A stretch of DNA of 64,000 bases. Origin: Dictyostelium discoideum (taxonomy: Eukaryota). This document shows positions 11,927 through 53,807 of this stretch, in pieces. Under the pieces are notes generated by a model. The model was not told where the DNA came from, did no database searches, and saw only the letters and a list, made by a program, of their open reading frames with translations. The translations under genes and the position numbers were made by a program. Numbering within the stretch: position 1 is the first letter of the stretch; each line of letters begins with the position of its first letter. Location of the stretch: positions 4,064,001-4,128,000 of the forward strand of contig CM000151.3 of the NCBI GenBank assembly GCA_000004695.1. The letters are read 5' to 3'.

Positions 11927-12230
11927 ATTAAAATTTATAATTATTTTAATATTTAGGCATTAATTTTAAATTCATGTGATTATTTAACAACATCAAATTT
12001 TGCAAAATGTAGAGGAGAGGCAATTAAAACTATAAAGAATACGATGGCAACGTGTAGTAATTTCGAAAAGTTATATTATAATCCAGATTTACAATTAGAG
12101 GATGAGGTTGATCTTGTTCATCAACAACAACAAAAAGAACAAGAACAACAACAAAAAGAACAAGAACAATATGAACAAGAACAATTAATTTTAAAACAAT
12201 TAAAAGAACAAGAATTAAAAAAACAACAAG

Positions 12231-12295
<65 letters not shown>

Positions 12296-13232
12296 AAACA
12301 CCAAGAAGAAAAAGAGAAAAATGATCAAAAAGAAAAAGAAGAGAAATTAAAAAAACAATTATTAGCAGAACAACAAAAACAAAAACAAGAGGAATTAGAA
12401 AGACAACAACAACAATTACAACAACAACAACAATTACTACAACAACAACAACAATTATTACAACAACAACAACAACAACAACGTTCAGATCCAATTATTA
12501 TACCACCAATTACATTAAAAACATCACAATCAGATTTATTAAGTGGTGGATTATCACCAAAAGTGAATTCACCAGGTTCACCCAATTTAGGTAAATTTAC
12601 AGAATCAGCAGAACGTGTTGCAAATTTTGATAGAGGTACAGCAAATATTATATTGAATATGAATAAGATCAAAGAGATATCATTGAGTGGTGATAGTGAA
12701 CAAGCACCAGAGATTGTCACAGCGGCAAGAATCATCTCTGAGAATATCGCTATCATATCCAAGGAATTACGATACAAAACATTGGGTACGAATCTTAGTG
12801 AACATTTCGTATCGGTTGTACAAGTTGCAAGATTAGCCATAAAGAATAAATCAGATCAATTCTATCAGGATCAATTGGAATTGGCAATTGAAAAATTTAA
12901 TGATACAATGCGTAAAATCATTTACTCTGTAAAGAGTATCTCAAAGAGTTCAATGAATCTTAGACAATTTGGTGTTGATGAGTCATCTTTAGGTAGATCA
13001 CCAGTTGTATCACCAGAGAAATCAATTTCACCAAGTTTTACAAGTAGTACAAGTGAACGTATTTTATCACATGAAATTAAAAATCATAATAATAATAATA
13101 ATAATTATAATAATAGTAGTACTAATAATTTACAAACTTCATTTTCAACACCTTCATTATCTTCAAATCATTCACAACAACCAAATCAACAACCATTACA
13201 ATCACCTTTATTAATTAATCAATTACAATCTA

Positions 13233-13263
<31 letters not shown>

Positions 13264-14050
13264 TCTTTCAAATTCTTTAAATTCTATACAACTACCTCAA
13301 GCAACAACTACAACAACAACAGCAACATCTCCATCAACCTCTACATCAACATCAACCTCAACATCACCAAATTCATCATCATTATCAATTTCAGATCAAG
13401 ATAAACAATTAAAAAGAAAAGAAAAACAACATCAAATCGTAATTCCAAAAGATGTTAAAGATTCAGTTGCAAATCAACAACAACAGCAACAACAACAACA
13501 AAATGGTACTACATCACCAAGAAATAATGAATCATCAGTAACAGCAGCAACAACAACAACAACATCAACAACAGCATCAATTACAACAAATGTTAATACA
13601 ATACCAAATTTCCCACCAAATAAACAATTACCAGCAACACCAACAACAGGTACACCATCAACATCAACACCAACACCACAAACACCAACATCAACTTCAC
13701 AAAATGATAAACAGAATGAAAATAATAATAAAGAGAATTTTGTTGACAAACAAAAAACATTGGGTAAATTATTTTCAAAGTTTGTTCATAAAAAGAGAAC
13801 ACCATTACCAGGATTTGATTCATCCAATTCATCATCACCATCAAATAATTCAAATACAACCAATTCATCATCTCATTCTAGTACAAACAGTTCACCAATG
13901 GAAACTTCACCAGGTGTTGAATCTCCAAAAATTACAAAAAGTCCTTCTCAAAATAATATTTTAGTTGATAGTTTAGATATTGGTTCTGATAATCAACAAC
14001 AACAACAAGATAAATTAACAACCACAACTTCAACAACGACAATAACAATA

Positions 14051-14111
<61 letters not shown>

Positions 14112-16816
14112 TACAACAACAACAACAACAACAGCAACAAATACCAACAACACCAAATAAATTATCAAATTCAATTGCAATGAATTCATCAAATAGATTA
14201 ATGACACCAAAGAAAGAAAGATCATTTACAATTGGATTGGTTAGTGGTAAACATTCATGTGTTGTAGTTGAAACACCAAAATCAAAGAAATTATTTCAAC
14301 ATGAATCAGCTAAACAAATACTTTCAATTATTTCAATGAATTTCCCAAGTTTTGAAAAAGAATTTCAAATGCAAAATAGTGAAGTAATCTCTAATATAAT
14401 TGAACAAATTGGAAATGTTATAAAGAATTATCATGATGAAGTTAGTGAATCATCATCATCGTCATCATCATCAACTACATCACCAAATAATATTAATACA
14501 CCATCTGATTGTTCACCAATTTTAAATTCTGAAAATTCTAAAGATAGTCATAATTTATCATCAATTAATAATAGTTCATATGATCCAGTTTCACCAGCAC
14601 TTAGAAAAATGTATGAAAATGGATCATATGATAGTAAAGAACATTCTAGATCATCTATTCAATCAAAGATTACACGAAAATTAGGTACAATTAGAAAGAA
14701 AGGACCAAGTCCATTTAATATGTTATTAAATTCAAGTACAGGTTCATTAAGTAGTTTATATTTAGATCAATTGAATGGTGGTAATGGTGATTCATCATCG
14801 TCATCATCTTCATCATATAATTTAGTTGGTGGTAGTGGTATTAGTGGTTATGATAATCAAAATGAAATTGATGCAAGTGAACATTTGGTTAGTACATCAA
14901 GTTTGTTCACAGAGGAAGCTATTGAATTGGTTAGTAAATGTTTTGAAGCGTCAATCATTGTTAATCATTCAGGTGGTACAAGTAGTGAAATTAAAGCATT
15001 GTTTTCATCGACATTGGATCATTTGGAATCAATGTTACAATCATCGGTAAACTTTGGTAAGATTGACCCATCCTCTTTCTGTATGACTTTCTTAAAGAAT
15101 ATTAGACAACACATTCCAACCATGAAATCAAAAGGTGGTAAATGTGATCCAACATTGGTAACAGCGGCAACTAAATTATTTAGACATACAATTCTATCGA
15201 ATCTTGATAAATCAATTCACTCCCTGTGTCATAGTGTTAGGGTGTTGGCAATTCAAATGACAATCATTGTAATAAGCATCAGTGCTAAACCATGGGATAT
15301 AAGCTCACAATTGCAACTGTTTGCATCGGCAAAGAGTTTCATCGATTCATTGGTATCATTATTGGATGCAGTGGAGAATAAAATTTACATTTCAACCAAT
15401 ACCAACATTCAAGATGATGTCGAAGTACCAACTATCGATGATACAGAGGATACAAATATTTGGGAGGAGGCTGATAGTCCATTAACATTTGGTTGGATCT
15501 CTGATGAAGGTAGTAAAACAGGTCGTTACGTTCCAAAAGCTGGTACATTAAATAAATTAATTTCAGCATTAACTCAAGATAATAAACATGATATATCACG
15601 TTATACTAAAACGTTTTTACTCACCTATCAATCATTTACAAATCCTTGGAAATTAATGGAGAAATTGATTCAACGTTATAATGTACCTTTGGATGAGAAA
15701 CCAGATGTTAGAGCAACAACTCAATTACGTGTGGTTTCATTTATGCAAACTTGGATAGAAAGAAATTTCAATGATTTCGATGATCAACTAATTGGTCAAC
15801 TAAAAGAGTTTAGAACTCGTTTACTAATGGATAATAATAATGATTTAGCGGTTATTTTAGGTGGTTTAATTAAAAAGAAAGAGGCCGAACGTTCACTTTC
15901 AAAGGAAAGATCAACCAATCATTTAACTTTCCCAGAATTAATGATACCAGATGGTCAAAAATCACCAACTGCCCTCTTTTTACTATTAAATGAATCAGAG
16001 ATCGCTAGACAATTAACTCTTATAGATTTCAATATCTTTTCAAAGATTCAACCAACTGAACTATTGGATCAATCATGGAATAAGGATTCATTGAAATTTA
16101 AATCACCAAATGTTATAGAAATGATCAATAGGGCAAATAAATTCTCATTTTGGGTTTCTTCACAAATTCTTTGGCAAGAAGATATTGAAGAGCGTGTTAA
16201 AGTATTTGAAAAGTTCATTTTAATCTCAAAATATCTAAGAGAAATGAATAATTTCAATACTTTGTTAGCCATTTTCACAGGTTTAAATACTGCACCTATC
16301 CTAAGATTAAAGAAAACCTTTGCTTTGTTATCTCCAAATTCTTTATCGATTTATAATAGTTTGGAGAAATTAATGAATTCAAGTGGTTCTTATAAAAACT
16401 ACAGAAGTGTTTCAAAAAATCCACCATTACTTCCTTATTTACCTGTTATCCTTTCCGATCTAACTTTTATGGAAGATGGTAATCCCGATAAAATAAATAA
16501 TCTAATCAATTTCCAAAAGAGAGAACTCATTTGTAGAGTAATTTCAGAGGTTCAACAATGTCAACAACAAACAAAATATGAATTCCCTGTGGTTGAACCA
16601 ATTCATACTCTTCTCACTGAATTACCTTCTTCAACTCCTTCTGAATTATATCAACTCTCTTTAATTCGTGAACCAAGAGAAACTAATCAATCAAATGCAA
16701 ATAGTTCAATTTCTTCTGGTTCAAACTTTTTATCAAATTCTTCAAATCATAATATTGGTAATAATAATGGTTTTGATACTTTAAAAAAATATTATAAGAG
16801 TAGTAATAATAATTAA
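11525..16816 (+). CDS. Ras guanine-nucleotide exchange factor (RasGEF-N + Cdc25-homology catalytic domain); 2 exons (11525..11830, 11957..16816), intron 11831..11956 (GTATGT...ATTTAG)
   Basis: Exon 1 ORF 11525 ends at ...KAAQ|GTATGT. Exon 2 reads ALILNSCDYL...MATCSNFEK in frame with ORF 12044..16816. The C-terminal half has RasGEF-N (GTLNKLISALTQDNKHDISRYTKTFLLTYQSF...) and the Cdc25 catalytic core (...ALFLLLNESEIARQLTLIDFNIFSKIQPTELL...FILISKYLREMNNFNTLLAIFTGLN...). The N-terminus has a Gln/Glu-rich coiled coil. Confidence 0.85.
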
Positions 16817-25270: not shown

Positions 25271-27779
25271 ATGACTGGTAGGTTATTCAAATTTATTAAT
25301 TTTTTTTTTATTTTTTTTTTTTTATTTTTTTTTAATTCTCAGATTTTTTTTTATTTTTTTATTTTTTTTTATTTTTTTATTTTTTTTTATTTTTTGGCTT
25401 TTTTTATTTTTTATTTTTTTATTTTTTTTACTTTAAATAATAGGACTAACCTTTTTTGGTTAAAATTTTTTTTTTTTTTTAAAAAAATCAAAAAAAAAAA
25501 AAAAATTAGATTATAGTAAAGCAACAGATGGTACAAAGGTTATTCATGATGATCCATGGTTGGAACCATATAAAGAAGTAATTAAAAGAAGACATAATCA
25601 AGTTAAAAATACCATTCAAAAATTGGAAGAAAGTGAAGGTAGTTTATTAAAATTTTCTCAAGGATATGAATACTTTGGTTTCAATGTTACAAAAGATGGT
25701 GTAAACTATAGAGAATGGTTACCATCTGCTCATGAAGTTTATTTAGTTGGTGATTTCAGTATGTATTTTTAAATTTTTAAAAAAAATTAATTTTATTTTT
25801 ATTTTTTTTTTATAAAATAAAATAAAATAAAATAAAATAAAAAAAAAAATATATATAAAAAAAAAAAAAATAAAATAAAATTAAAATTAATTATTTTAAA
25901 AATTTGAAATCCATACAGATCAATGGAATAAAACAAGTCATCCACTTGAAAGAGATAATTATGGTAGATGGAGTATTTTCATTCCAAATAATTCAAATGG
26001 TGAATGTGCAATTCCACATGGTTCAAAAATTAAAGTAAGTTTTTATTTTATTTTATTTTATTTTTATTTTTATTTTTTGATTCTAATTGGGTTTTTTTTT
26101 TTTTTTTTTTTTAGATTTATTTAAAATTAGCAAATGGTAATTTTGATTATAGAATACCAGCATGGATTAAAAGAGTTGAACAAACCAAAGAGAATCCAGT
26201 ATTTGATGGTGTATTTTGGAATCCAAGTAAACAATATGTATTTAAGAATAAATCACCAATGAAACCAACAGAGTTGAGAATTTATGAAGCACATGTTGGT
26301 ATGTCAAGTGAATTACCAGAGATATCAACATACAGTAAATTCAAGGATACTGTATTACCAATGGTGAAGGAGTTGGGATACAATTGTATTCAGTTGATGG
26401 CAGTTATGGAGCATGCCTATTATGCATCGTTTGGTTATCAAGTGACAAATTTCTTTGCAATCAGCAGTAGATTTGGCACACCGGAGGAGTTGAAAGAGAT
26501 GATTGATAAAGCACACGAGATGGGATTGTTGGTGTTTTTAGACGTTGTTCATAGCCATGCATCAAAGAATGTGTTGGACGGTCTCAATCAATTGGACGGC
26601 ACCGATCATCATTACTTTCACTCGGGTGGTCGTGGAAATCATGAGTTGTGGGATAGCAGATTATTCAATTATGGCAATTGGGAGGTGATGAGATTCCTTT
26701 TATCGAATTTACGTTTCTACGTTGACGAGTATCATTTCGATGGATTCAGATTCGATGGTGTAACAAGCATGATTTACACTCATCATGGTTTATCACCAGC
26801 ATGCTCATACGACGACTATTTCGGTGGTGCTGTCGACGAGGATGCGTTAAATTATCTCACTTTGGCAAATGTTATGCTCCACACATTGAATCCATCAATT
26901 GTCACCATCGCAGAGGAAGTCACTGGTTTAGCAACACTTTGTCGTCCATTTAGTGAGGGTGGTGGTGATTTCGATTACCGTTTAGCTATGGGTATACCTG
27001 ATAAATGGATCGAATTGGTCAAGGAGAAAAAAGATGAAGATTGGAATATGGGTACTATCGCTCACATGCTATCGAATCGTCGTTACAAGGAGAAGAATAT
27101 AGCATACGCCGAATCACATGATCAATCATTGGTGGGTGATAAAACTTTGGCATTCTGGTTAATGGATAAGGAAATGTATACAAATATGTCTGTCACAACC
27201 GAAGAGACTCCAATCATTGATCGTGGTATGTCTTTACATAAGATGATTCGTTTGATCACTTCTTCATTGGGTGGTGATGGTTATCTAAATTTTATGGGTA
27301 ACGAGTTTGGTCACCCAGAATGGGTGGATTTCCCACGTGAAGGTAATAACAATAGTTTACATCATGCTCGTCGTAGATGGGACCTCTATAGAAATCCATT
27401 ATTAAGATATAAACAATTACGTGACTTTGATATTGCAATGAATAAAGCTGAACAAGAATTCCGTTGGTTATCTTCCGATTTCGCTTATATCTCTTTGAAA
27501 CATGAAGATGATAAAATCATAGTTTTCGAACGTGCTTCTCTTATCTTTATCTTTAACTTTCATCCATCTAAAAGTTTCTCTGATTATAGAATTGGTTCTG
27601 GTGTACCAGGTAAATTTATAAATGTTTTAGATTCTGATCGTAAAGAATTTGGTGGTCATGTTCGTATTGGTAAAGATAATTATCATTATACTGAAGATAA
27701 ACCATGGCATGATAGAAAATATTCTTTATTAATTTATATTCCATCAAGAACTTGTTTAGTTTTAAAAAAAGTTGATTAA
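25271..27779 (+). CDS. glgB: 1,4-alpha-glucan (glycogen) branching enzyme, GH13; 4 exons join(25271..25277, 25510..25758, 25919..26034, 26115..27779)
   Basis: Exon 1 ATGACTG|GTAGGT. Exon 2 (M T)[34 protein letters not shown]...LVGDF matches the GBE1 N-terminus; donor A|GTATGT. Exon 3 [39 protein letters not shown]|GTAAGT. Exon 4 [23 protein letters not shown]... continues into ORF 26259..27779 ([45 protein letters not shown]...[10 protein letters not shown]...GNEFGHPEW). Strong identity to human GBE1 throughout. Confidence 0.9.
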
Positions 27780-27902: not shown

Positions 27903-30900
27903 TTAAAATAAATCTTTTTGAGATTCAGCTAAATTTAATAAAATATCATCAATATTTTCAATTGGTTTTGAATTTGGTAATTGATTTTGATGATCTAATT
28001 CAATTTGACGATGATGTTTTGATTGATCAATTTTTAATTCAAATTCTTTTGCTTCATTATCAAGTGTTGTCCATTCATCAATGATTCTAACAGCATTTTC
28101 AAGTTTTGGAGTTTTTGTGAGAGGATTATTACAAAGATCAATGGTTTTAGCTTTTGATTTTGATTCTTGATCACACCAAGTTTCACACCATAACCATTCT
28201 TGTGGTAACGAATGAATTCTAACATAATGTTGAAGATAATTTGGTAAATCTTGATCAAGATTGGCTAAACTATTTGGATCACGCGATAATTGATCATAGG
28301 TTGCTCTAAGTTGATCACCAGCTGCTAAACGACGGAATCTAACAAGATCAACGACGTAGAGAGCAGAGATATGATAGGAACGACCAGCTAAATGTTGTCT
28401 CCAATAACCAGATTTCCAGAATCTGAAACCTTCGGTATCCTTATTTGAGTCACAAAATGGTGTGTAACCTAATGAGGCGCCATGGAGATCCATATCCCAA
28501 AGTTCTTTCAAATCGGTACGAACTACTTGATCAGCATCAACGAAAATAATCTTTGGTACATCCAATGGGAAGAGTACATCAAGGAAGAGGATCTTATAAC
28601 TCCAAATGATTCTTTGTTTTTCAGTTTGTTTACGTAACCACCATGGCCATTTATAAGTTACCAACTCATATTGGAAACCATACTCTTTTGCCATCTCTGG
28701 TATGAATTCTTTAAAAGCTGGTGATAAATAATTCTTTAAAAACCAAAATTTAATTGGTGATTCAGTATTCTTTACGACGGATAACATCATAATCTTTAAA
28801 AATCTTTCATAAAGATGACCACTTGCAACTGAAAAAATATGAATTGTATCTAAATTTGATTTCTTTTGATGAGTAGCGACACTATCTGTTGCGTCATTCT
28901 TTGAACTGAAAAGATTTGAAAAGAAGCCACTACTATTTTGTTTTAATTTTTGTTCTTTTTCTTGTTCTTTTTGTTTTTCATATTCATCAATTGGTTGAAG
29001 TATTGGTCTTAATTCTTGACCAGCTTTACGAACCACCGATAGAGATGATAATGATTGATATAAACTATCGATTACAACCAAACGATGTGGTACAATTACA
29101 AAGGTTTCCTTTTCTTTTTGATTTGGATGATCAACCATATCCATTATATCAGAGGATCTACCTGGAGCAATTGTTAATTTCCAAATACCAGGATTGGATT
29201 TCAATTGATAATAACCGAAATTATTCATAACTATAGTATCTTGAGTTTTATTTGTTTGTGTTGAAATTGGGTTTAATAATAATTCTAAACCTGCTGGAGC
29301 GTTATCAGTTGTCATATCATTGGCACTACCCTCGATAACTATATTCTCCAATTCATAAACTGCAGTTAAAACTTGTTCATCACCTAAATCTTTTAGACGA
29401 ATATTATCAAGATCATACTTGGCAATGATTGGTTGAACTAACCAACTTGATGGTATATCCAAAGCCAATGTTACAACACGATCCTCTGGAATATCAGTTG
29501 CAATACCTAATGGTTGATTATAAAGTACATTTTCATTATTAAATTCACTTGATAGCTTAATAACATAAGTATAATAAGTCTTTAATGGTAATTCTGATAA
29601 TGATACAGGTGGATTTAAAATTACATCAACTGGTATATTTAATTTATTTGAAAATTCTCTAACCATTGGTACTAATTTTTGTGAAACTTTATTAAATGGA
29701 TTAATAATCATTAAAAATTTTAATGGTACATCATTTGAATTTGAAGAAGAAGATGATGATGATGATGATAAAGTTGGTGGTTTATGACTAAATGAAATTG
29801 ATAATGAATTTGGAATTCTTTTTCTTTTAATATTTGAATCTAATTGATTGTTACCATTATAATAATAACCAACTAATGATTGAACTTTATTTAAAAGATC
29901 ACTAATTTTTAAATTTGATTTATCTTTTAAAATTGGATCAGAATTTAATAATTCAAAAGTTTTTTTAGCTTTAATCATTTCAATTTCTAAGAGTAATTTA
30001 AAATCAGATTGAATGAATGATGCAGCGTCATCATATGATAGTGGTGGTGTAATAATTCTACCATTTACAAGTATTGAAAGTGGTGATTTATTTGTTGATT
30101 GGATACCAAGATATTGTTTACAAACTTTTGAACTTTGTTTGAAAAGATTAACAGATTGTGCAACCCAGATATCGTTAGCAGCAATATCGAATCCACTCAA
30201 CTCTATGATTTGTTTCATCGTTTTAAAAGAATCGATAATTGTTGGATCGGATTGAACCTTTTCAAATAACCCAATCACCAATTGTGGTGTCAATATTTTA
30301 CCATAGTGTTTTAATATTGTGATTAGTTTACCGAGAATTTGATTTTCATTACCGGCTGTATTGACAACACTATTGATATCGATTGGATTGGAAATGAATG
30401 TTAATTTACAATTTTTTAATTCACCCTTTTCCAATTGTCTTAATAATTCCAATGAGATATCTCTAGTATTGTAATGATCGAAATCACCAATTACAATTAA
30501 ATTTAATAAATTTTGTTCATCTTTATTCTCATTATTTCTAAAATATAATAAATTCTTTAAAACATTTTGTGCATCAACTTCTTGATTTCTATTCTTTGAA
30601 TTTGTAATTAAATGTGAATATTTTTCATTTGAAATCATTGAATTTAATTTTTTTAAAAATGGTAAATTATTATCTTTCCAATATGAACTTGTTAAAATTG
30701 TTTCATAATATTGTGCTGTTGTTGTTGAAAGTATTGATTCTTTAAATAATGGTTTTAAATTATCAAATTCATCATATAATGAAACTAACAAATCAAATGA
30801 TAATTGATCAATATTTGAATATTTAACTTGAACACCATTTACAAATACTTTTGGTAATATTTTTGTAGTAGTTGTTGTTGTTGTTGATTGCGATGTTGTT

Positions 30901-31209
30901 GTATCAAGTAGTTCTAATCTTTCAATTAATTGATTTGAACTTTCTAAAAGATTATCAAAATCAGTATTTGTTAATGCATGTTGTAAAGATCTAACACTAC
31001 CACCCATTTGTTGTAAAACTGCTTGAAATGATGATGAAAGTACAGATCTTGTAATACCAAGTTCATTTGGAATATACATTTTCTTAAAATAATTTAAAGC
31101 AGTAATGAAAAAGAAAGCACCACGATTACCTAAATTTGAATTTTTAATAGTAAGGAAAACTTTTGCTAAATCTTTACCTTGAATGAAATTTGATGTTTGT
31201 GAATTTTGA

Positions 31210-31244
<35 letters not shown>

Positions 31245-32123
31245 TGATTTTGTATTAAAAAGTAATTGAATTCTAGTTGGTATTAATGAATTTCCTTGTA
31301 CCATTTCTTGAATTTCAGGTATGATTTCAAATGTATTAATATTATTCCAATCCAAGACAATAACGGTTGTTAATAGATTCTTTCTGATAAAGATATCTTG
31401 TGGTGAAGTTACGGGTTTATCCAATACTGATGATTGTAATTTTGGCTCCCATTGACGGTAAATGTAATCCAATTCTAAATTATTTAAAGATACAAATGGT
31501 TCATTACCACCATTCAATTCTAGTTCTTCTTTAGTTGGTAATAATTGAATACGAATTGGTAATTGAGCAGAGATTATATCCTGTACAGTCTTTGATGATA
31601 GCGGACCCTGTTGTTGGATTGTAGTGGAATGTTCATACTCTTCTAAAATGATTCTTGATAATTCAATTGGACTAAGTTCATTCGTGTCTATTAAACGACC
31701 GTTTAAAAGCAATGTTTGGTCAGTAGTGGATGGGATTATCTTTTGATTTGACTCAATCACCGATTTCAATGATTCGTTTAATGTTATCTTTGATAATGAA
31801 TTTGAAAGTGTTGGAAACTTTTGAGAAATATATTCCAACGATCTCAATGGGTCACCTGATTGAATGATTTTTTGAGCACTTTGAATACCCAAATCTTTCA
31901 ATTCCCAAACTTTCAATTCTTTAGCCTCTTGACTCTTTGCCATTAAATATGATCTAAATGTTGATAATTTACTTGTTAATTCTGGTTTTCTCTTTTGTAA
32001 TTTATGAAAATTAAATCCTTGTACATCTTCATTTGGTATATTAATTATAGTTTTTGATTTAACACCATCAATAATTATATCTTAAAAAATAAAAATAATA
32101 TTAGAATCAATAATAATAATAAT

Positions 32124-32158
<35 letters not shown>

Positions 32159-32931
32159 TATATAATAATAATTTTTACCTTTTTTAATTGCAGAATCATC
32201 CATAACTTTATATTCTAAATTTTTAATTGATAATTCATAACCATAACCTTGAAGATTTAATTTTTGATTTGATTCTTGAACAACATATCTTAGACAATAT
32301 TTGATTTTACCCATTTGAGAGAATTGTTTTAATTTTGGATGAACCAATTTAAAGAATTCACTCTTAATATCAACATATAAAATTACAATTGGAATTGATG
32401 ATGGTGATGATGATGAGGATGAAACAGTATTTGCAAGTGTTGGAAAAATATGGTCAAAATCATATAATCTAATAAATTCATTTTCTTCATCGTCGACAAC
32501 TGCTACATCTTTAAATAATGATTCATTAATTTCATTTACATCTGTTATAATTTTATTTTTGATTTGAACCCAACCACCACTATTAAAAAGAGTAATGGTT
32601 TTATTATCAGCAGTGGTGATGGAATGCTCAATATTATTTAATTTCATATTTGAAATTGCTAATTGTCTATAGGTTTCAACTCTTGGTGAATAAGTTCTCA
32701 TTGCAAGATCAATACTAAGGAATTCACTTAAAAATTGGGTATTACTTGATAAAACTGATTTCATTAATGAAATTGTTGATTCATAATATATTTTATCGCT
32801 ATAATTTGTACTGAAATCAATTTTATTAAATTCTTCAATAAATTTCCAAAATAATGATTTATCTTGATTATGTAAAAATTCTCTTTTTTTTAAAAAAAAA
32901 AAAAAAAATATTAGTATATATATAAATTTAG

Positions 32932-32966
<35 letters not shown>

Positions 32967-33175
32967 GGAGAGGATAAAAAAGAAAAAATATATTATAATA
33001 ATAATACTTACGCAGCTTCCAAATAAGAAGGTGTTTCACCCCAATTTGAAACTAAAGATAATTGAATTGATTTTGATGAAAATGAATTATCTCCTTCATT
33101 TGATTCTACCAATAGTAATACATTTGATATAAAAACAATTAATAAAAATACAAAGAATTTAAATATCCTTGCCAT
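27903..33175 (-). CDS. UDP-glucose:glycoprotein glucosyltransferase (UGGT; GT24 catalytic domain plus N-terminal thioredoxin-like folding-sensor domains), ~1681 aa; 3 exons complement(join(27903..32080, 32179..32882, 33012..33175))
   Basis: Exon 1 MARIFKFFVFLLIVFISNVLLLVESNEG...SKSIQLSLVSNWGETPSYLEA (signal peptide plus the conserved UGGT N-terminus) ends at donor GC|GTAAGT. Exon 2 (A)EFLHNQDKSLFWKFIEEFNKIDFST...GYGYELSIKNLEYKVMDDSAIKK ends at donor G|GTAAAA. Exon 3 (D)IIIDGVKSK... runs in frame into ORF 27903..31943, which carries the GT24 motifs (FLDVLFPLDVPKIIFVDADQVVRTDLKELWDMDLHGASLGYTPFCD...LPNYLQHYVRIHSLPQEWLWCETWC). The dictyBase name is probably ggtA but is unverified. Confidence 0.85.
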
Positions 33176-33176
33176 T

Positions 33177-33220
<44 letters not shown>

Positions 33221-33611
33221 CACACAATAAAAAAAATATTAATTTTTATTGATGATGGTTTTTAATGATGATCATAAAAAAAAATTTTTTAAAAAAAAAA
33301 ATAAAAAATTAAAAAAAAAAATTAAAATTTTTTTTTTTTTTTTTTTTTTTCAAATAATCACCAAAAATGAATTAAAATTTTTTTTTATTTTTTATTTTTT
33401 TTAAATTTTTATTTTTTTATTTTCAATCTCAAAAGCAAAAGCAAAAGCAAACACGTACACACGACTTTTTCATATTTTTTATTTTTTTTTATTTTTTATT
33501 TATTTATTACTTGTATTTTTATTTGTATTTTATATTAAATTATTTTATTATTATTATTATTATTTTTTTTATTTAATGGAAAAGTAAAGTGATTTCAAAA
33601 AAAAAAAAAAC

Positions 33612-33811
33612 ATGAAAAAATTGTTTGATATTATTTCTCCGAGTAAAAATATACAACAACAATCTGCAAGTGGTAAAGAATCGTCATCATCATCATCATC
33701 ATCTTCATCACCATCACCATCAAAAAATAGATCTTGTTTTAATGGAATTGGTTAGTTTTTATGAAAAAATAAAAATAATAAAAAAAATTAATAAAAAAAA
33801 AAATTATTAAC

Positions 33812-33903
<92 letters not shown>

Positions 33904-34171
33904 TAAAAATAAAAACAAAAATAAATTTTATAGGTATAAATAGTAAAATTAATAATATTAATATCCAAGAAGATTCTATTAGCAATGGAAATAATAATGA
34001 GAAATACCCACAAATTGAAAGAGATAATATTATTAAAATAGTTTTATTAGGTGGATATCAAGTTGGTAAATCATCAATAATAAGGAGATATCTTCAAGGT
34101 TGTTTCACAACATCTTACATACCAACTATTGGTATAGATTTGTCAACTTTATTATTAAAAAGAAAGCAATC

Positions 34172-34238
<67 letters not shown>

Positions 34239-34631
34239 CCATCACCACAATCATCACAGCAACCACCACCACAACAACAACAACAGCAACAGCAACAACA
34301 ACAACAACAACAACAACAAACACCTCAACGTAATAAAAATGAAAATTATGATGAGAATGATTATTTAAGTGATTATTCAGATTCAGAATCAAAAGATGAT
34401 TCATCATTAAATCAATATTTAACGCAATCACCAAATCAATATATAGTACAATTTTGGGATGTTGCCTATGCAGAGATTAAAGGTAAACATTTCTCTAGTA
34501 TTTTAAGTGGTGCTTCTGCAATCATTATGGTTTATGATTCTGTTAATGCAAGTTCAATTTTAGCAATTGATGAATGGAAAACAATTTTAAATACTTCACC
34601 ATTTATTCAAATTAATAATGGTAATAATAAC

Positions 34632-34662
<31 letters not shown>

Positions 34663-35867
34663 GTAATAATAATAGTAATAATAATAATAGTAATAATAAT
34701 AGTTTTAATAGTAATAATTATAAAAAAATACCATTGGCATTATTTGCAAATAAAAGTGATATTGGTGAACCAGTTATAAGTCCAACAGATTTAGATTATT
34801 ATTGTAATGCATGTGGTTATAGTATTTGGAGATTTACTTCATGTAAAAAGGATTTAAATATTATATCAGGTATTGATTCATTGATTTCATTAGTTATTGA
34901 AAATAAGAATCAAGAACTCTCTGATATTAGGAATAGATTATTAAATGAAAAAAAAGAAAAAAGAAAATTAATTTATCAATTAAAGAAAAATGTAAATTTA
35001 AATACAAGTGTAAAATATACAAGAAGTATTAATAAAAGTAGTAGTGGTAATAAAAATCAAGATAATAATAATGTTGATGATATTGATATAGTTAAAAATT
35101 TAACAAAAGAATTAGTTTTATCACAATCTTGTCCAAATATTTCAAATTATGGTAAAGATGTTAATAATGATGATGATGATGATAATAATAATACTATTGA
35201 AAATAATGAAAATGAAAATAATGAAAATGTAAAAAAACAACAAGAAAAAGAAAAAGAACAAAAAGAAAAAGAAAAAGAAAAATTACAACAATTTAAACAT
35301 CAAAGTGAAATTGAAAAAGTAAATGAATTATTAGAGATGACAAATGAACATTATTCAAAGTTTCAAAAATCTTTGGAAGAGATTATGTCAAAATCAAATG
35401 GTACAACTAGATATAATGATTTAGTTCAGTTGGAGAAACAAAGAAGTAATGAATACGTAAAAATATGTAATAATTTAAAGAAATTAATTCAACCAAGTGC
35501 ATTTAGACAACATCATCACCATCACCACCACCATCATCATCATAAACCTTCCCAAAAAATAACATCAGATCTACTTTCAAAGATCTTGGATGAAAATATT
35601 TTAAAATGGAATACTTTAATCTCTAATCTTCAATTGGAAATATCTTTAAAATTAAATAATCAAAATAATGTATATCAGTCAAATAATAACAACAATAATA
35701 ATGTAAAACAAAATAATAAAGTAGCACAATCCTATAATGCTGTTAGTCTTTTAATTAAAGATGATCAAGAATATAGATATAATAATAATAATAATAATAA
35801 TAACAATGGTGGTAGAAAAAATAGCTTCAGCAACAGCAGCAATAATATTAATAATAATAATAATAAT

Positions 35868-35955
<88 letters not shown>

Positions 35956-36491
35956 GTAGTATAAATAATAGTATAAAATTAAATATAAATAATAATCCAA
36001 AGTATAAGATGGGTTTTGGATTTAAACATGGTGGAAAGAATTTATCATCAAATTTTTCAATTAATGATCATAGTATTGATACTGATAATCCTTCAATGAC
36101 AAGTTCTTCAATTACTAGTAATTCCTCAATGAATAGTTTTTCATCCTCTCCAAGTAGTTCTCCACCAAATGATGATATCAATGATAATAGACATACAAAT
36201 AATATCAATAGAGTAGCTACAAATGGTGATGGTAATGTTGATGGTGGTGGTGGTGATAATATTGGTGATAATGATTCAAGCTCTTTAAATAGTAGCAGTT
36301 ATCAAAACCATCATAATCATCATAATCATCACCGACACAATTTTAATAATGATAGTAATAATAACAGTTATTCCCCATCAACTAGTCATAATGGAATTGG
36401 AGGTGATGATTTCCTCTTACCATCCCCTTCTCTATTACCCTCCTCTTATAATTTAACTGTAACTGTTTTACCTGATCTTAAATATAAATAA
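33612..36491 (+). CDS. Atypical Rab/Ras-like small GTPase with huge poly-Q/poly-N insertions and a long low-complexity C-terminus; 2 exons (33612..33750, 33934..36491)
   Basis: Exon 1 MKKLFDIISPSKNIQQQSASGKESSSSSSSSSPSPSKNRSCFNGIG ends at |GTTAGT. The intron holds an (AAT)n run, with acceptor ttttatag|. Exon 2 has G1 (IVLLGGYQVGKSS), switch I (YIPTIGID) and G4 (ALFANKSD), but G3 reads FWDVAYAE instead of WDTAGQE. It runs in frame into ORF 34140..36491. Confidence 0.7.
33808..33900. repeat. (AAT)n microsatellite in the intron of the Rab-like gene
   Basis: Perfect trinucleotide run seen in the sequence. Confidence 0.9.
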
Positions 36492-37271: not shown

Positions 37272-38977
37272 TTATAGAAAGTACTGAGTGAATTATTGTA
37301 TTTTTTGAGATGTTTAGGAAGTTCTATTGCGGGTGTTGATGATGATTTGTGACACCCCTTGTCCTGTTTTATCAATTGGTGCGTGGTGTGTTATTTTGTT
37401 TTTATATTGTTGATTTATTGAGTAAATTTTATTTGTTTTTATATTTGTTTCAGTTAGAAGTGCTGCGTCCAGCTTGTTGTTGTCTAAAACGGTGTTTATT
37501 ATGCTGGCAGATTGGATGGTGTTGGATCCTTGGACGTTCCAAACACCTATTCTTATTGTGTTTTTCTTTATAGTTTTATTTGGGGTAGATTTTTATCTAC
37601 CTTTTGAAGTTTCTGGTTTATTTTGTCTTCTAACTGATCTTTACTTTGTTCATTGTGTTGTTGGTCTTGTGTGTTTGTGGGGTTTTTTGATTTATTGATT
37701 TGTTTTAGAATTTCCTTGTTGAAGTTGTCTATATCTTCATCCATTTTTGTTTTTATGCTTTTTTGTCCATATTCACCCAATTTTGGTTTGACTGGTGTTT
37801 TGTTGGTCTTGTTTGTTTTGCCTTGTTGTTTCTTTTTTGGTGTGTTTAACAATTTACTTGGTGAATCGATAATTTTCGATGGTGTACCATAGGTTGGGCT
37901 GAAACTCATGATATGTTTTATTGGAGAGGAGAAGAACCATTGATTTGAAGGGATTGAAAGTGGGAATTCTATTTTTCTTATTGCATCAGTGTTTGGGCTG
38001 GTGAAGTCGAAGATATCATTTGCCTCTCTAAGTTTTTCTTCCGTTGTTAGTCCCTTTGTTTCGCCGTGTTGTTTTATTGGTGTATTGTATGGAGATGGTG
38101 GTTCGATAGGTTTTTCTGATTTTGTTTTAATTTCTTGATTGTTTATCGATTGTGTATTGATCTCATTCTCTATTCTTGTTAGTTCATCTACGTTTTCTAG
38201 TGATGCTTCTATTACCTTTTGAGCTGTATCATCTAGGGCCATAAATGTTTTATCATTAGATGAGGATGTGATTGGTGGGATAATGATTGTTCTTTTTCCT
38301 TGTTTTGGTATTTGTTCTGATGTAGATTGTGGTTGTTGTTCATCTGATTGTTTTTTATTTTTGTTTTCTTCTTGATTTTCTGGTAATGAGGTTTGATCTC
38401 TCCATCCTTTGTTGGAGTGTCCAATTAATGTTAGATTGTCTAGTTCAATGATAGTGTCAAATTCTTCTACGACTCTTTTCACTGTTTTGATAATTAGAGT
38501 TTCGCCTTTAATTTCTGATTTAATTAGTTTACATCCTTCATTTTCTATTACCCATTCTATTTCTGTGAGTGATTTATACCAATCAAAATCTGTATACATA
38601 TTTTTTGGTCTTATAGTGGTTATAAATTGTCCTTTTAATTCTGCATCAAACATATTTACAAAATAGATTACTGTACTAATACTGTCTGTGAGAATTTTGA
38701 ATGTATTATTACTTTTGATTAAAACATCTTTTTTGTCCAAACTTTTTTCTAAATCTTTTTTTATTTTATCGTCTGGTTCGTGATTGATGTTTATGACGTA
38801 TTTGAATTGTTTTTTTTTTAATTGAGTTTTATCCACAATTTCGCTTATTTTTTGTAGGCATTTGTGTTGCTTAATATTTGTGGTGTTGTTTGTGATTTTC
38901 ATTTTATTTTCTTTCTATCTTTTTTATTTTTCTTTAAAAAGTTAAAAATCTGGAAATTTTCTAATTAACTTGGTTCC

Positions 38978-39356: not shown

Positions 39357-39439
39357 GCAAGGGTAGGAAAGTCTGGTTAAATCCGTGTGACTTAAGATCT
39401 CATCCATTCGGTTCGCGAGTTCGAATCTCGCCTCTTGCA
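39357..39439 (+). tRNA. tRNA-Leu (anticodon UAA), type II with long variable arm
   Basis: Acceptor stem GCAAGGG/CCTCTTGC plus discriminator A, T-arm GCGAG-TTCGAAT-CTCGC, anticodon loop C-T-TAA-G-A, long variable region. The anticodon call is the least certain part. Confidence 0.65.
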
Positions 39440-44027: not shown

Positions 44028-44669
44028 TTAATAATTAATTGGTGGTGTAATTGTTGGAATTGGTTCATTTGTGTTTATGCTCCATTCTTTTTTAAATTTT
44101 TTGATGGTTTCAGACCATTGGGTTTCTTTTTGAGTTTTTGTGAAGTTGTTTTTAATTGAGTATTGGTTAAAGTTTGATAACGTTCTTGAATATTCCAATC
44201 TTATTAGCTTGTGCCATTTTGATTTTAATATATCATAATCTAGTGTTGTGTTGTTTATTTGGTTGTTCCAATTGTCAATTGATTGAGTTATATTGATGTC
44301 AAATAATGATTTGCATAACCATATCCATATTTGGTGAATAACTAATGAGATTATGTTCCAATATGCATGTGTTCTGACTAGATCAAGATTTGTGTTTATA
44401 TAATTCCAGTTGAACCTGTATTTTTTATATTGTGCGTTTTCTGCAAAATGAAAATTAATATTGATAGTTGGATCTGGTTTAAATGCTTTGTTGTTTGTTT
44501 GTGGTTTATAAATGAGTGTGTATAATTTTGTTGTTCGGTTTTTTGTTAGTGACCAGTTTTTGTTTCCATTGCAATTTTTATATATAAAATATTTTAATTT
44601 GTCGTGGTTTATGAAGTTGATTGTGTGTTGACAATTGAAAAACAAATGACCATAGGGATCATTATTCAT
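44028..44669 (-). CDS. Retrotransposon ORF2 C-terminal domain fragment (copy B)
   Basis: MNNDPYGHLFFNCQHTINFINHDKLKYFIYKNC..., near-identical to copy A at the shared region. Confidence 0.45.
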   Translation of the reverse strand: MNNDPYGHLFFNCQHTINFINHDKLKYFIYKNCNGNKNWSLTKNRTTKLYTLIYKPQTNNKAFKPDPTININFHFAENAQYKKYRFNWNYINTNLDLVRTHAYWNIISLVIHQIWIWLCKSLFDINITQSIDNWNNQINNTTLDYDILKSKWHKLIRLEYSRTLSNFNQYSIKNNFTKTQKETQWSETIKKFKKEWSINTNEPIPTITPPINY

Positions 44670-45239: not shown

Positions 45240-45269
45240 TATGATCATTCTATTTTTATAAAAATTTTG

Positions 45270-45340
45270 TGCGTATGCTGGGAATCGAACCCAGTTCGCA
45301 TCCGTGGCAGGGATGCATCATACCACTAGACCACATACGC
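45270..45340 (-). tRNA. tRNA-Gly (anticodon GCC), 71 nt
   Basis: Minus strand: GCGTATGTGGTCTAGTGGTATGATGCATCCCTGCCACGGATGCGAACTGGGTTCGATTCCCAGCATACGCA. It has a canonical cloverleaf, anticodon loop CTGCCAC, and T-loop GGTTCGATTCC. Confidence 0.8.
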
Positions 45341-52978: not shown

Positions 52979-53807
52979 AATAGTTTTAGAAAAAGTTGAT
53001 AAAAAATCTATTTTTAATTTAGACGATATTGATAATAATTTATTTACATTTGGTTTAACTCAACAACAAACTCAACAACAATTTCAAAAGAAAAATAGAG
53101 ATAGATATAGATTTGGAGATAGAGACAAAAATATAGATTCGTATGGTAATGATAAATTTTTTGAAGATTCTGAAGCTGAGGAAGATTCAGAAATCGAAAG
53201 AAGAAATAGTCAAGACGATGATGATGATGATGATGAAGAAGAAGATGGAATTGGTGAAAATAAATATGATTTACATGATTCATTCATTAATGATGGTGAT
53301 GAATCAGCCGAAAATTCATTAAGTTCTCAAAGTACTACTCCAACTAAAAAGAAAAAGAAGAATAAAAGAAAAAGAAAATCAAATAATTTTATATATGCAC
53401 AATCATTATTAAGTCAAAATTCACTAGGTTTTAATGGTGGCAGTAAAAGAAAAGGTGGATTATTAAGTGTAATTGAAAAGTTTGAAAAAATTGGCCAACA
53501 TGAAGAAGAATTTATCGATGAAAATGATTATACAGGTAGTGAAGATTATGATGATGAAAATGAAAATGAAAATGATTATGAGTCTGGTAGTGATTCAATC
53601 GAAGAAATTGATAAAAGTATAAATAGTAGTGAAGAAAAAAGACAAAAAAAATATCATCATCATAATAATAACAATAATAATCCAAAACTATCGTCAATCC
53701 ATTCAAAACCAATTATAGATTCACCAAAGTCAAATAATAGCAACAACAATAATAGTAATTCTAAAAATAGAAAAGATTTTTCCAATCATGATTTATTTTC
53801 TCTTTAA
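48420..53807 (+). CDS. fncM: FANCM/Mph1/Hef-family DEAH-box DNA helicase (Fanconi anaemia group M orthologue), 1795 aa, single exon
   Basis: The helicase core is strongly similar to human FANCM: MICLPTGLGKTFIASILMLNYYHWFP (motif I), CIVIDEAHRAQGNYDYC (DEAH), FRVLALTATPGSN, LVSTCIGEEGLDIGEVDLVVCYD, RTGRTGRKRDGRCIFL. The N-terminus is Q/N-rich. The C-terminus has a PT/SKPLPLSPV proline-rich peptide repeat (about 52380..52760). The symbol is inferred from the Dictyostelium Fanconi-gene naming scheme and is not verified. Confidence 0.8.

Follow-up and report, generated by a model that had tools for sequence, protein, structure and literature searches.

The gene at 33612–36491 on the forward strand of the stretch examined here (64,000 nucleotides of Dictyostelium discoideum chromosome 2, hereafter the window) encodes an 898-residue protein with a Rab32-like G domain whose switch II carries neither the DxxG glycine nor the catalytic glutamine. 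We propose that this protein is probably a Rab32-derived, non-prenylated "broken switch" that binds nucleotide, performs neither canonical hydrolysis of guanosine triphosphate (GTP) nor Rab-like cycling, and acts as a scaffold. The binding, the loss of hydrolysis and the scaffold role are ones we infer from sequence comparison, with binding argued from the conservation of the binding motifs. The G domain and its motifs lie at the following positions:

34026–34919, forward strand: Rab32-like G domain, residues 78–375, interrupted by two low-complexity loops; identified by Pfam Ras/Roc, phmmer against PDB, AlphaFold and Foldseek.
34050–34076, forward strand: G1/P-loop GGYQVGKSS, residues 86–94; GxxxxGK[ST] in every family member that covers the region.
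34116–34139, forward strand: G2/switch I YIPTIGID, residues 108–115, with the conserved Thr111.
34455–34475, forward strand: G3/switch II WDVAYAE, residues 221–227; against WDIAGQE of Rab32, Gly is replaced by Tyr225 and Gln by Ala226.
34746–34760, forward strand: G4 ANKSD (NKxD), residues 318–322; N, K and D invariant in a 30-sequence alignment.
34836–34853, forward strand: G5 TSCKKD (SAK-like), residues 348–353; TS[CA][KR] in most members.

All of the motifs that contact nucleotide are present: GxxxxGK[ST] of G1 as GGYQVGKSS, the G2 threonine as T111, NKxD of G4 as NKSD, and SAK of G5 as SCK. At G3, where DxxG and the catalytic Gln would be expected, the protein reads DVAYA. A first-pass annotation of this DNA had quoted the same five stretches, each of which is found in the 898-residue product, and had pointed out that the DxxGQ box lacks its Gly and catalytic Gln, a reading that alignment with Rab32 confirms. 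It had also considered that an alternative splice pattern might restore DTAGQE, and that the G motifs might be too degenerate to bind nucleotide. The second is not the case, as the nucleotide-binding motifs are intact and conserved. As for the first, a six-frame scan of the whole window for D..G[QHKRTSL]E or D[TIV][AP]G returned only an unrelated acidic stretch at 53526, and because no frame of the window encodes a canonical DxxG(Q)E, the splicing explanation fails. A restoring exon is ruled out both by this lack of coding potential in any frame and by the presence of the same variant in orthologues.

Orthologues were returned by homology searches from Polysphondylium violaceum, Cavenderia fasciculata, Tieghemostelium lacteum, Acytostelium subglobosum and Synstelium polycarpum, and further ones from one EukProt species, the protosteloid Clastostelium recurvatum, and several soil-metagenome contigs. 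G-domain identity to the dictyostelid orthologues is 51–53%, and in databases two of the orthologues carry just the name "Ras GTPase domain-containing protein" and two "hypothetical protein". The Clastostelium sequence is a transcriptome contig, so this orthologue is expressed. A scan of metagenome DNA for more family members found none. Ten family sequences cover switch II, and all ten show the pattern D[IV][AS][HY]xE, with His or Tyr at the DxxG Gly throughout. By comparison the catalytic Gln position is occupied by A, S, P, A, A, A, A, A, K or Q, the Gln being kept in the metagenomic member P0030 (DIAHQE). The segment that follows the motif, E-[IV]-x-G-[KRN]-[HNL], is also conserved, as are GK[ST], the switch I Thr, the G3 Asp and NKxD, with G5 as TS[CA][KR] in most members. 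Judging by these sequences, the family is conserved across the social amoebae and at least one stalked solitary amoeba, it was already present in the ancestor shared by Dictyostelia and the protosteloid Clastostelium, and the switch II change is a character of the family, not an artefact or splicing error.

The same glycine replacement was also seen elsewhere. P0036, a metagenome protein of 240 residues from the Joint Genome Institute, has a Rab1-like N-terminal sequence, a cysteine-rich C-terminal region (SCLSCCFG) and WDIAHQE, that is, Gly to His at DxxG with the Gln kept. It is no nearer to the family than other Rabs are (mean identity 0.25), which suggests that the substitution arose independently in a conventional Rab.

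The domain match itself is real and not a chance resemblance. Pfam Ras (PF00071, cut-off 21.6 bits) matches the full protein at E = 1.1e-11 (45.1 bits) and the protein with its inserts removed at E = 5.5e-18 (65.5 bits), and Pfam Ras and Roc both score above their curated cut-offs. An AlphaFold2 model of residues 75–385, built with the inserts kept in and with the 30-sequence alignment, has a mean predicted local distance difference test (pLDDT) score of 80. In its core the pLDDT exceeds 90, and six strands and five helices follow the canonical order beta1-alpha1-beta2-beta3-alpha2-beta4-alpha3-beta5-alpha4-beta6-alpha5, with switch II itself at 90–96. Foldseek matches the model to Rab structures with a probability of 1.00. 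The first-pass annotation had called the protein a Rab-like GTPase and had proposed structure prediction as a check on whether the domain folds with its inserts looped out, and the predicted G domain does fold in this way, with both inserts outside it.

Within the Rabs, the affinity is to Rab32, Rab29 and Rab38. When the loop-trimmed G domain is searched with phmmer against all PDB sequences, the best matches are Rab32 (1.1e-20), Rab29 (Rab7L1; 1.7e-19) and Rab38 (4.6e-19), followed by Rab3C (4.4e-15) and Ypt7 (3e-14). The nine top PDB matches are all Rab32, Rab29 or Rab38, with the single sequence and with the profile, and their lead over the next Rab is 9–18 bits depending on the chain. A profile of five orthologues gives Rab32 104 bits, Rab29 100.6 and Rab38 100.5, then Rab3C at 87.8 and the rest below 80. 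In the structural comparison the top 13 Foldseek matches in PDB are all Rab32, Rab38 or Rab29, with template modelling (TM) scores, normalised to the target, of 0.83–0.87. Among the sequences from outside the family that were compared, the two most similar to it are both of the WDIAG type, and EIKG of the protein aligns with ERFG of Rab32. The WDIAGQE signature is reported to unite the Rab32 clade, Dictyostelium members among them, and to occur in no other Rab clade (PMC2954822). Our protein keeps only WD-V-A of this signature, the G and Q being replaced. Of the RabF motifs of Pereira-Leal and Seabra (RabF1–F5: IGVDF, KLQIW, RFrsiT, YYRGA and LVYDIT), three are recognisable in a direct reading against Rab32, as IGIDL, IVQFW and MVYDSV; at RabF3 and RabF4 the protein has IKGKHF and ILSGA. 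We consider Rab32/38/29 ancestry to be well supported, short of proof. The Rab-like identification made at first pass, with the alignment against Rab families that it proposed, was largely right, although it missed the Rab32 ancestry, the conserved tail and the absent prenylation site.

How such a protein might work can be argued from what has been kept and what has been lost. All residues for binding Mg-guanine nucleotide are kept (P-loop Lys and Ser, switch I Thr, G3 Asp, NKxD and S[CA]K), and the two residues of switch II that would couple the gamma-phosphate to conformation and to catalysis are gone. In Ras, G60 substitutions block the GTP-driven transition of switch II, and Q61 substitutions abolish catalysis. 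The degradation here is of the kind that marks class ii pseudoGTPases, with Tyr at the Gly60 equivalent, Ala at the Gln61 equivalent, and a Gln position that is unconstrained in the family. Because the nucleotide contacts are kept, the Gly is always His or Tyr, and the Gln is unconstrained, the protein would bind nucleotide without canonical hydrolysis or cycling. The bound nucleotide would serve as a structural cofactor, and the remodelled yet conserved switch II surface as a fixed interaction face. Localisation and partners would be supplied by the N-terminal hydrophobic/basic motif, the three-helix bundle and the three linear motifs in the disordered tail; the tail module, the linear motifs and perhaps an N-terminal helix would stand in for prenylation in targeting. 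The earlier suggestion that the protein is hydrolysis-deficient or constitutively GTP-bound, drawn from general knowledge of the Ras superfamily, is plausible in this light.

Several points weigh against the broken-switch proposal. Bulk at the Gly60 position might shift the preference from GTP to guanosine diphosphate (GDP) or even to an empty state, and the invariant His/Tyr together with the conserved E-I-K-G-K-H segment could supply non-canonical catalysis or a mechanism assisted by a GTPase-activating protein (GAP). In addition, the Rab32 affinity is a matter of score ranking and motifs. RGK GTPases lack the DxxG Gly and still hydrolyse GTP (class iii), despite their diverged G motifs (PMC5593906). 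A broader interpretation, which we offer tentatively, is that these proteins form an undescribed, Eumycetozoa-specific and "locked" Rab32-derived family, in which His/Tyr would give switch II either a new, fixed surface or a novel chemistry for catalysis or sensing, and in which a private three-helix tail would replace prenylation for targeting. If this were true, the family could act as a constitutive platform in pathways served elsewhere by Rab32-family proteins, namely lysosome-related or contractile-vacuole and Roco/LRRK2-type ones.

The RGK precedent also leads to the alternative that stands up best, although we regard it as unlikely: an active GTPase with a non-canonical mechanism (class iii, like RGK or the "HAS" GTPases) that still cycles. 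Its catalytic function would come from the invariant His/Tyr, from conserved Glu227, Lys229 or His232, from a partner GAP, or from dimerisation. An aromatic or imidazole side chain is strictly conserved where the Gly would be, and E-I-x-G-[KRN]-[HNL] is conserved after it, which does suggest a switch II that is functional and not decayed, and P0030 retains its Gln; however, a Gln position that accepts A, S, P, K and Q does not behave like a catalytic site, and the direct reading against Rab32 shows that the RabF3 and RabF4 motifs of switch II, which Rab regulators use, are lost. We also know of no precedent in the Ras superfamily for catalysis from the Gly60 position.

Rather improbable, in our view, is that the gene is the D. 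discoideum member of "RabTitan" and not a lineage-specific offshoot of Rab32. Elias et al. in 2012 reportedly proposed RabTitan as an ancient pan-eukaryotic paralogue comprising large Rab-like proteins without C-terminal cysteines. Klopper et al. describe RabTitans, one of them from D. discoideum, that are all without cysteines at the C-terminus and score far below Ran or Rho with a general Rab hidden Markov model (PMC3425129). Our protein is indeed large, has no Cys motif, and reaches just 45–65 bits with Pfam Ras. Yet its tail module occurs only in Eumycetozoa-type sequences among 1.84 billion representative proteins, and it has a clear Rab32-type signature and ranking, as opposed to being "very distantly related to Rabs", a comparison made with the published description of RabTitan. 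A class i pseudoGTPase, with a G domain that binds no nucleotide and is a purely structural module, is highly improbable: a bulky Tyr/His where the gamma-phosphate packs could occlude the site, and switch II is strongly remodelled, but Dictyostelia and Clastostelium alike retain GK[ST], the Thr of switch I, the Asp of G3, NKxD and S[CA]K, whereas known class i pseudoGTPases such as CENP-M and the pG domains of p190RhoGAP have lost such motifs (PMC5593906).

Some 720 residues of the protein fall outside the core G domain, and the first-pass figure of about 700 is close to this; it took them all to be low-complexity, though, and a simple entropy filter marks only 418 of the 898 residues as such, while the tail has a conserved foldable module and motifs. 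Four blocks outside the G domain are conserved: an N-terminal motif (M-x-K-L-[FIL]-x-x-[LI]), residues 499–622, a pair of tail motifs at 735–766, and a near-C-terminal block at 880–889. Those in the tail are as follows:

35289–35660, forward strand: three-helix bundle, residues 499–622, interrupted by a poly-His loop.
35997–36026, forward strand: tail motif PKYKMGFGFK; K[ML]GFGF[KR] in every member or fragment that reaches this far, including Clastostelium and metagenomic fragments.
36072–36092, forward strand: tail motif SIDTDNP; D-T-D-N-P invariant in dictyostelids (S[IV]DTDNP).
36432–36461, forward strand: near-C-terminal motif LLPSSYNLTV, residues 880–889, with no Cys after it; LP.SY.L / LPSSY[NH]L conserved, with LPSSYNISASFPD in Clastostelium.

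Residues 499–622 contain 16 invariant columns in 11 sequences and are predicted with confidence to form an antiparallel three-helix bundle (pLDDT 84, predicted TM score 0.73), with low confidence in the poly-His loop (model residues 77–87). Counterparts of SIDTDNP are LDNDN in Clastostelium and LDSDN and VDADN in metagenomic fragments. When the helical module was run as a profile, with no word index, against the same 1.84 billion representative proteins, 11 of these matched at E ≤ 0.001, and 10 of the 11 are family members or tail fragments with family motifs. The weakest match, P0064, is spurious, as it covers 21 residues against a repeat protein. The three-helix module and the three short tail motifs are restricted to the family. 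No prenylation motif (CC, CXC, CCXX or CAAX) is present at the C-terminus (...LPDLKYK) or in the orthologue C-termini examined.

The poly-His loop of the module, between helices 2 and 3, is encoded by 11 His codons at 35518–35550 (residues 573–583). A His run is also found there in P. violaceum, and the loop is Gly/Ser/His-rich in other species; the T. lacteum His run is placed in the beta2-beta3 loop instead. His-rich loops recur at differing positions in the family.

The G domain is itself interrupted by two repeat tracts:

34158–34436, forward strand: poly-Q-rich insertion in the beta2-beta3 hairpin, residues ~122–214 (~90 residues), in frame and without a stop; a (CAA)n array, detected by Tandem Repeats Finder (TRF) at 34172–34319.
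34614–34718, forward strand: poly-N insertion in the alpha3-beta5 loop, residues 274–308; of (AAT)n type, TRF 34613–34723, pLDDT ~52.

D. discoideum has a spacing of 111 residues from the switch I Thr to the G3 Asp, compared with 63–74 in other dictyostelids and 28–35 in Synstelium, T. lacteum and the metagenomic sequences P0030 and P0065; the poly-N insert is absent or short in orthologues. AlphaFold2 confidence is low in both the poly-Q region (model residues 49–139) and the poly-N region (196–235). That the poly-Q stretch between G2 and G3 must loop out of the fold, as had been anticipated, agrees with the model, in which it is a low-confidence excursion of the beta2-beta3 loop from a confident Ras fold. 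We can rule out that it is a missed intron, given that it continues the reading frame without a stop, does not begin with a GT donor, and corresponds to peptide inserts of varying length in orthologues. The poly-Q and poly-N tracts are ordinary lineage-specific D. discoideum repeat expansions in tolerant surface loops, without conserved information, and play no part in the mechanism. They do illustrate that the beta2-beta3 and alpha3-beta5 loops of a G domain can tolerate repeat expansions in D. discoideum.

The gene model on which these comparisons are based is as follows:

33612–36491, forward strand: whole gene, two exons, D. discoideum chromosome 2, product of 898 residues.
33612–33750, forward strand: exon 1, codons 1–46 and the first base of codon 47; N-terminal motif MKKLFDIISPSK at 33612–33647.
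33751–33933, forward strand: intron of 183 nucleotides, GTTAGT...ATAG (GT..AG), mostly (AAT)n; TRF 33768–33924.
33934–36491, forward strand: exon 2, ending with the stop codon TAA.

Without splicing, the frame from the ATG at 33612 would stop at a TAG at 33753. Orthologue N-termini (M.KL[FIL]..L(S)P.K) align with MKKLFDIISPSK, the N-terminus that exon 1 encodes, and this supports both the intron and the choice of start codon. GCA_054883475.1, another assembly of D. discoideum, has the gene called on the identical span with an 898-residue product, and its DNA is the same base for base. A pseudogene or annotation artefact is ruled out by the intact open reading frame (ORF), the G-domain identity to dictyostelid orthologues given above, and the Clastostelium copy from a transcriptome. 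The exact product had no match in a collection of 15 billion proteins, and homology searches with it returned no D. discoideum or D. purpureum orthologue. This absence from databases may be an effect of repeat-driven filtering or of the word index, or may reflect a differing gene model in AX4.

The G+C content of the window is 23%. Directly upstream of the GTPase gene, and divergent from it, is a UDP-glucose:glycoprotein glucosyltransferase gene (27903–32764, reverse strand), with a called product of 1681 residues and Glyco_transf_24, UDP-g_GGTase and thioredoxin-like domains. The intergenic region between the two, 32765–33611, consists nearly purely of A/T homopolymer runs. About 17 kb from the GTPase gene, a 1590-residue ORF on the forward strand (12044–16816) has RasGEF_N and RasGEF domains. 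The substrates of RasGEF domains are Ras and Rap, not Rab, and therefore its proximity is probably a coincidence.

A 444-residue intronless ORF (37568–38902, reverse strand) is identical to DDB_G0274721 of AX4 (8.48-Mb chromosome 2 record); it has no Pfam match, belongs to a cluster of 17 sequences at 90% identity from several D. discoideum chromosome records, and lies ~450 bp from a transfer RNA (tRNA) gene, tRNA-Leu(UAA), at 39357–39439 on the forward strand. Its appearance suggests ORF1 of a tRNA-gene-targeted (TRE-type) retroelement. Another intronless ORF, of 213 residues (44028–44669, reverse strand), is identical to AX4 DDB_G0274719, again without a Pfam match, and is multi-copy, with 8 cluster members on several chromosomes. 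It adjoins tRNA-Gly(GCC) (45269–45340, reverse strand) and is probably another tRNA-associated mobile element ORF. Lastly, a 506-residue ORF at 26259–27779 on the forward strand has the catalytic and C-terminal domains of an alpha-amylase and is probably a single exon from a larger gene for a glycoside hydrolase; the only record of its exact sequence is in a contig of a Logan assembly, with none under a D. discoideum accession.

We found no paper on the family of the 898-residue protein. Since atypical or pseudo small GTPases and anchor-less Rab-like proteins are already known, the conceptual gain is modest, and what is distinctive to the family is the fixed His/Tyr at the DxxG Gly, the Rab32 ancestry and the private three-helix tail module. 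If the broken-switch proposal holds, this would be a natural and anciently fixed "G60/Q61-less" Rab, with its nucleotide pocket kept across Dictyostelia and a protosteloid amoeba, and would show cleanly, in an organism amenable to genetics, how evolution made a non-cycling scaffold out of a Rab. Dictyostelium serves as a model in Roco/LRRK2 research, and structures of Rab29, Rab32 and Rab38 in complex with, or linked to, LRRK2 are among the Foldseek matches (PDB 8fo2, 8fo9). Given both, a locked Rab32 derivative could be a useful probe.

Compared with known systems, the protein resembles Rab32, Rab38 and Rab29 in being their best match by sequence, profile and structure, in the WD-I/V-A start of switch II, in the Gly of ERFG (EIKG here), and in a long alpha3-beta5 loop. 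It differs from them in having Tyr/His and a variable residue for the Gly and Gln of WDIAGQE, in the remodelling of the rest of switch II and alpha2 (RabF3 and RabF4), and in the lack of a Cys prenylation motif, as well as in its N-terminal extension, two loop expansions and ~520-residue tail with a folded module.

With Rnd1–3 and RhoH it shares nucleotide-binding motifs that are kept alongside degraded switch II and catalytic positions; these, however, are Rho-family proteins that keep the DxxG Gly, are prenylated, and have no long tail. Rnd proteins are class ii pseudoGTPases with a degraded switch II and GTP permanently bound, and Rnd1–3 and RhoH are constitutively "on", controlled by expression and localisation instead of cycling (PMC5593906). 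N- and C-terminal extensions and the absence of prenylation are features in common with RGK proteins, although these belong to the Ras branch, not Rab, and their extensions, which bind calmodulin, 14-3-3 and CaV-beta, are unrelated to the tail described here. RGK proteins have likewise lost the DxxG Gly (DxWE-type G3). The group (Gem, Rad, Rem1/2) is classed among the pseudoGTPases and reported to keep hydrolysis (PMC5593906).

An N-terminal Rab-like G domain followed by a long C-terminal extension without C-terminal cysteines is also the architecture of RabTitan and human RABL6 (PMC3425129). By description, RabTitan is set apart as very distantly Rab-like, in contrast to a family that is clearly Rab32-like and has a tail module of its own. 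Human RABL6 also lacks the DxxG Gly (WDVVD). In Ras G60A, nucleotide binding is intact, the GTP-dependent transition of switch II is blocked and GTPase activity is lowered; but where G60A is an engineered point mutant, in this family the change is ancient and fixed, with Gln61 lost as well.

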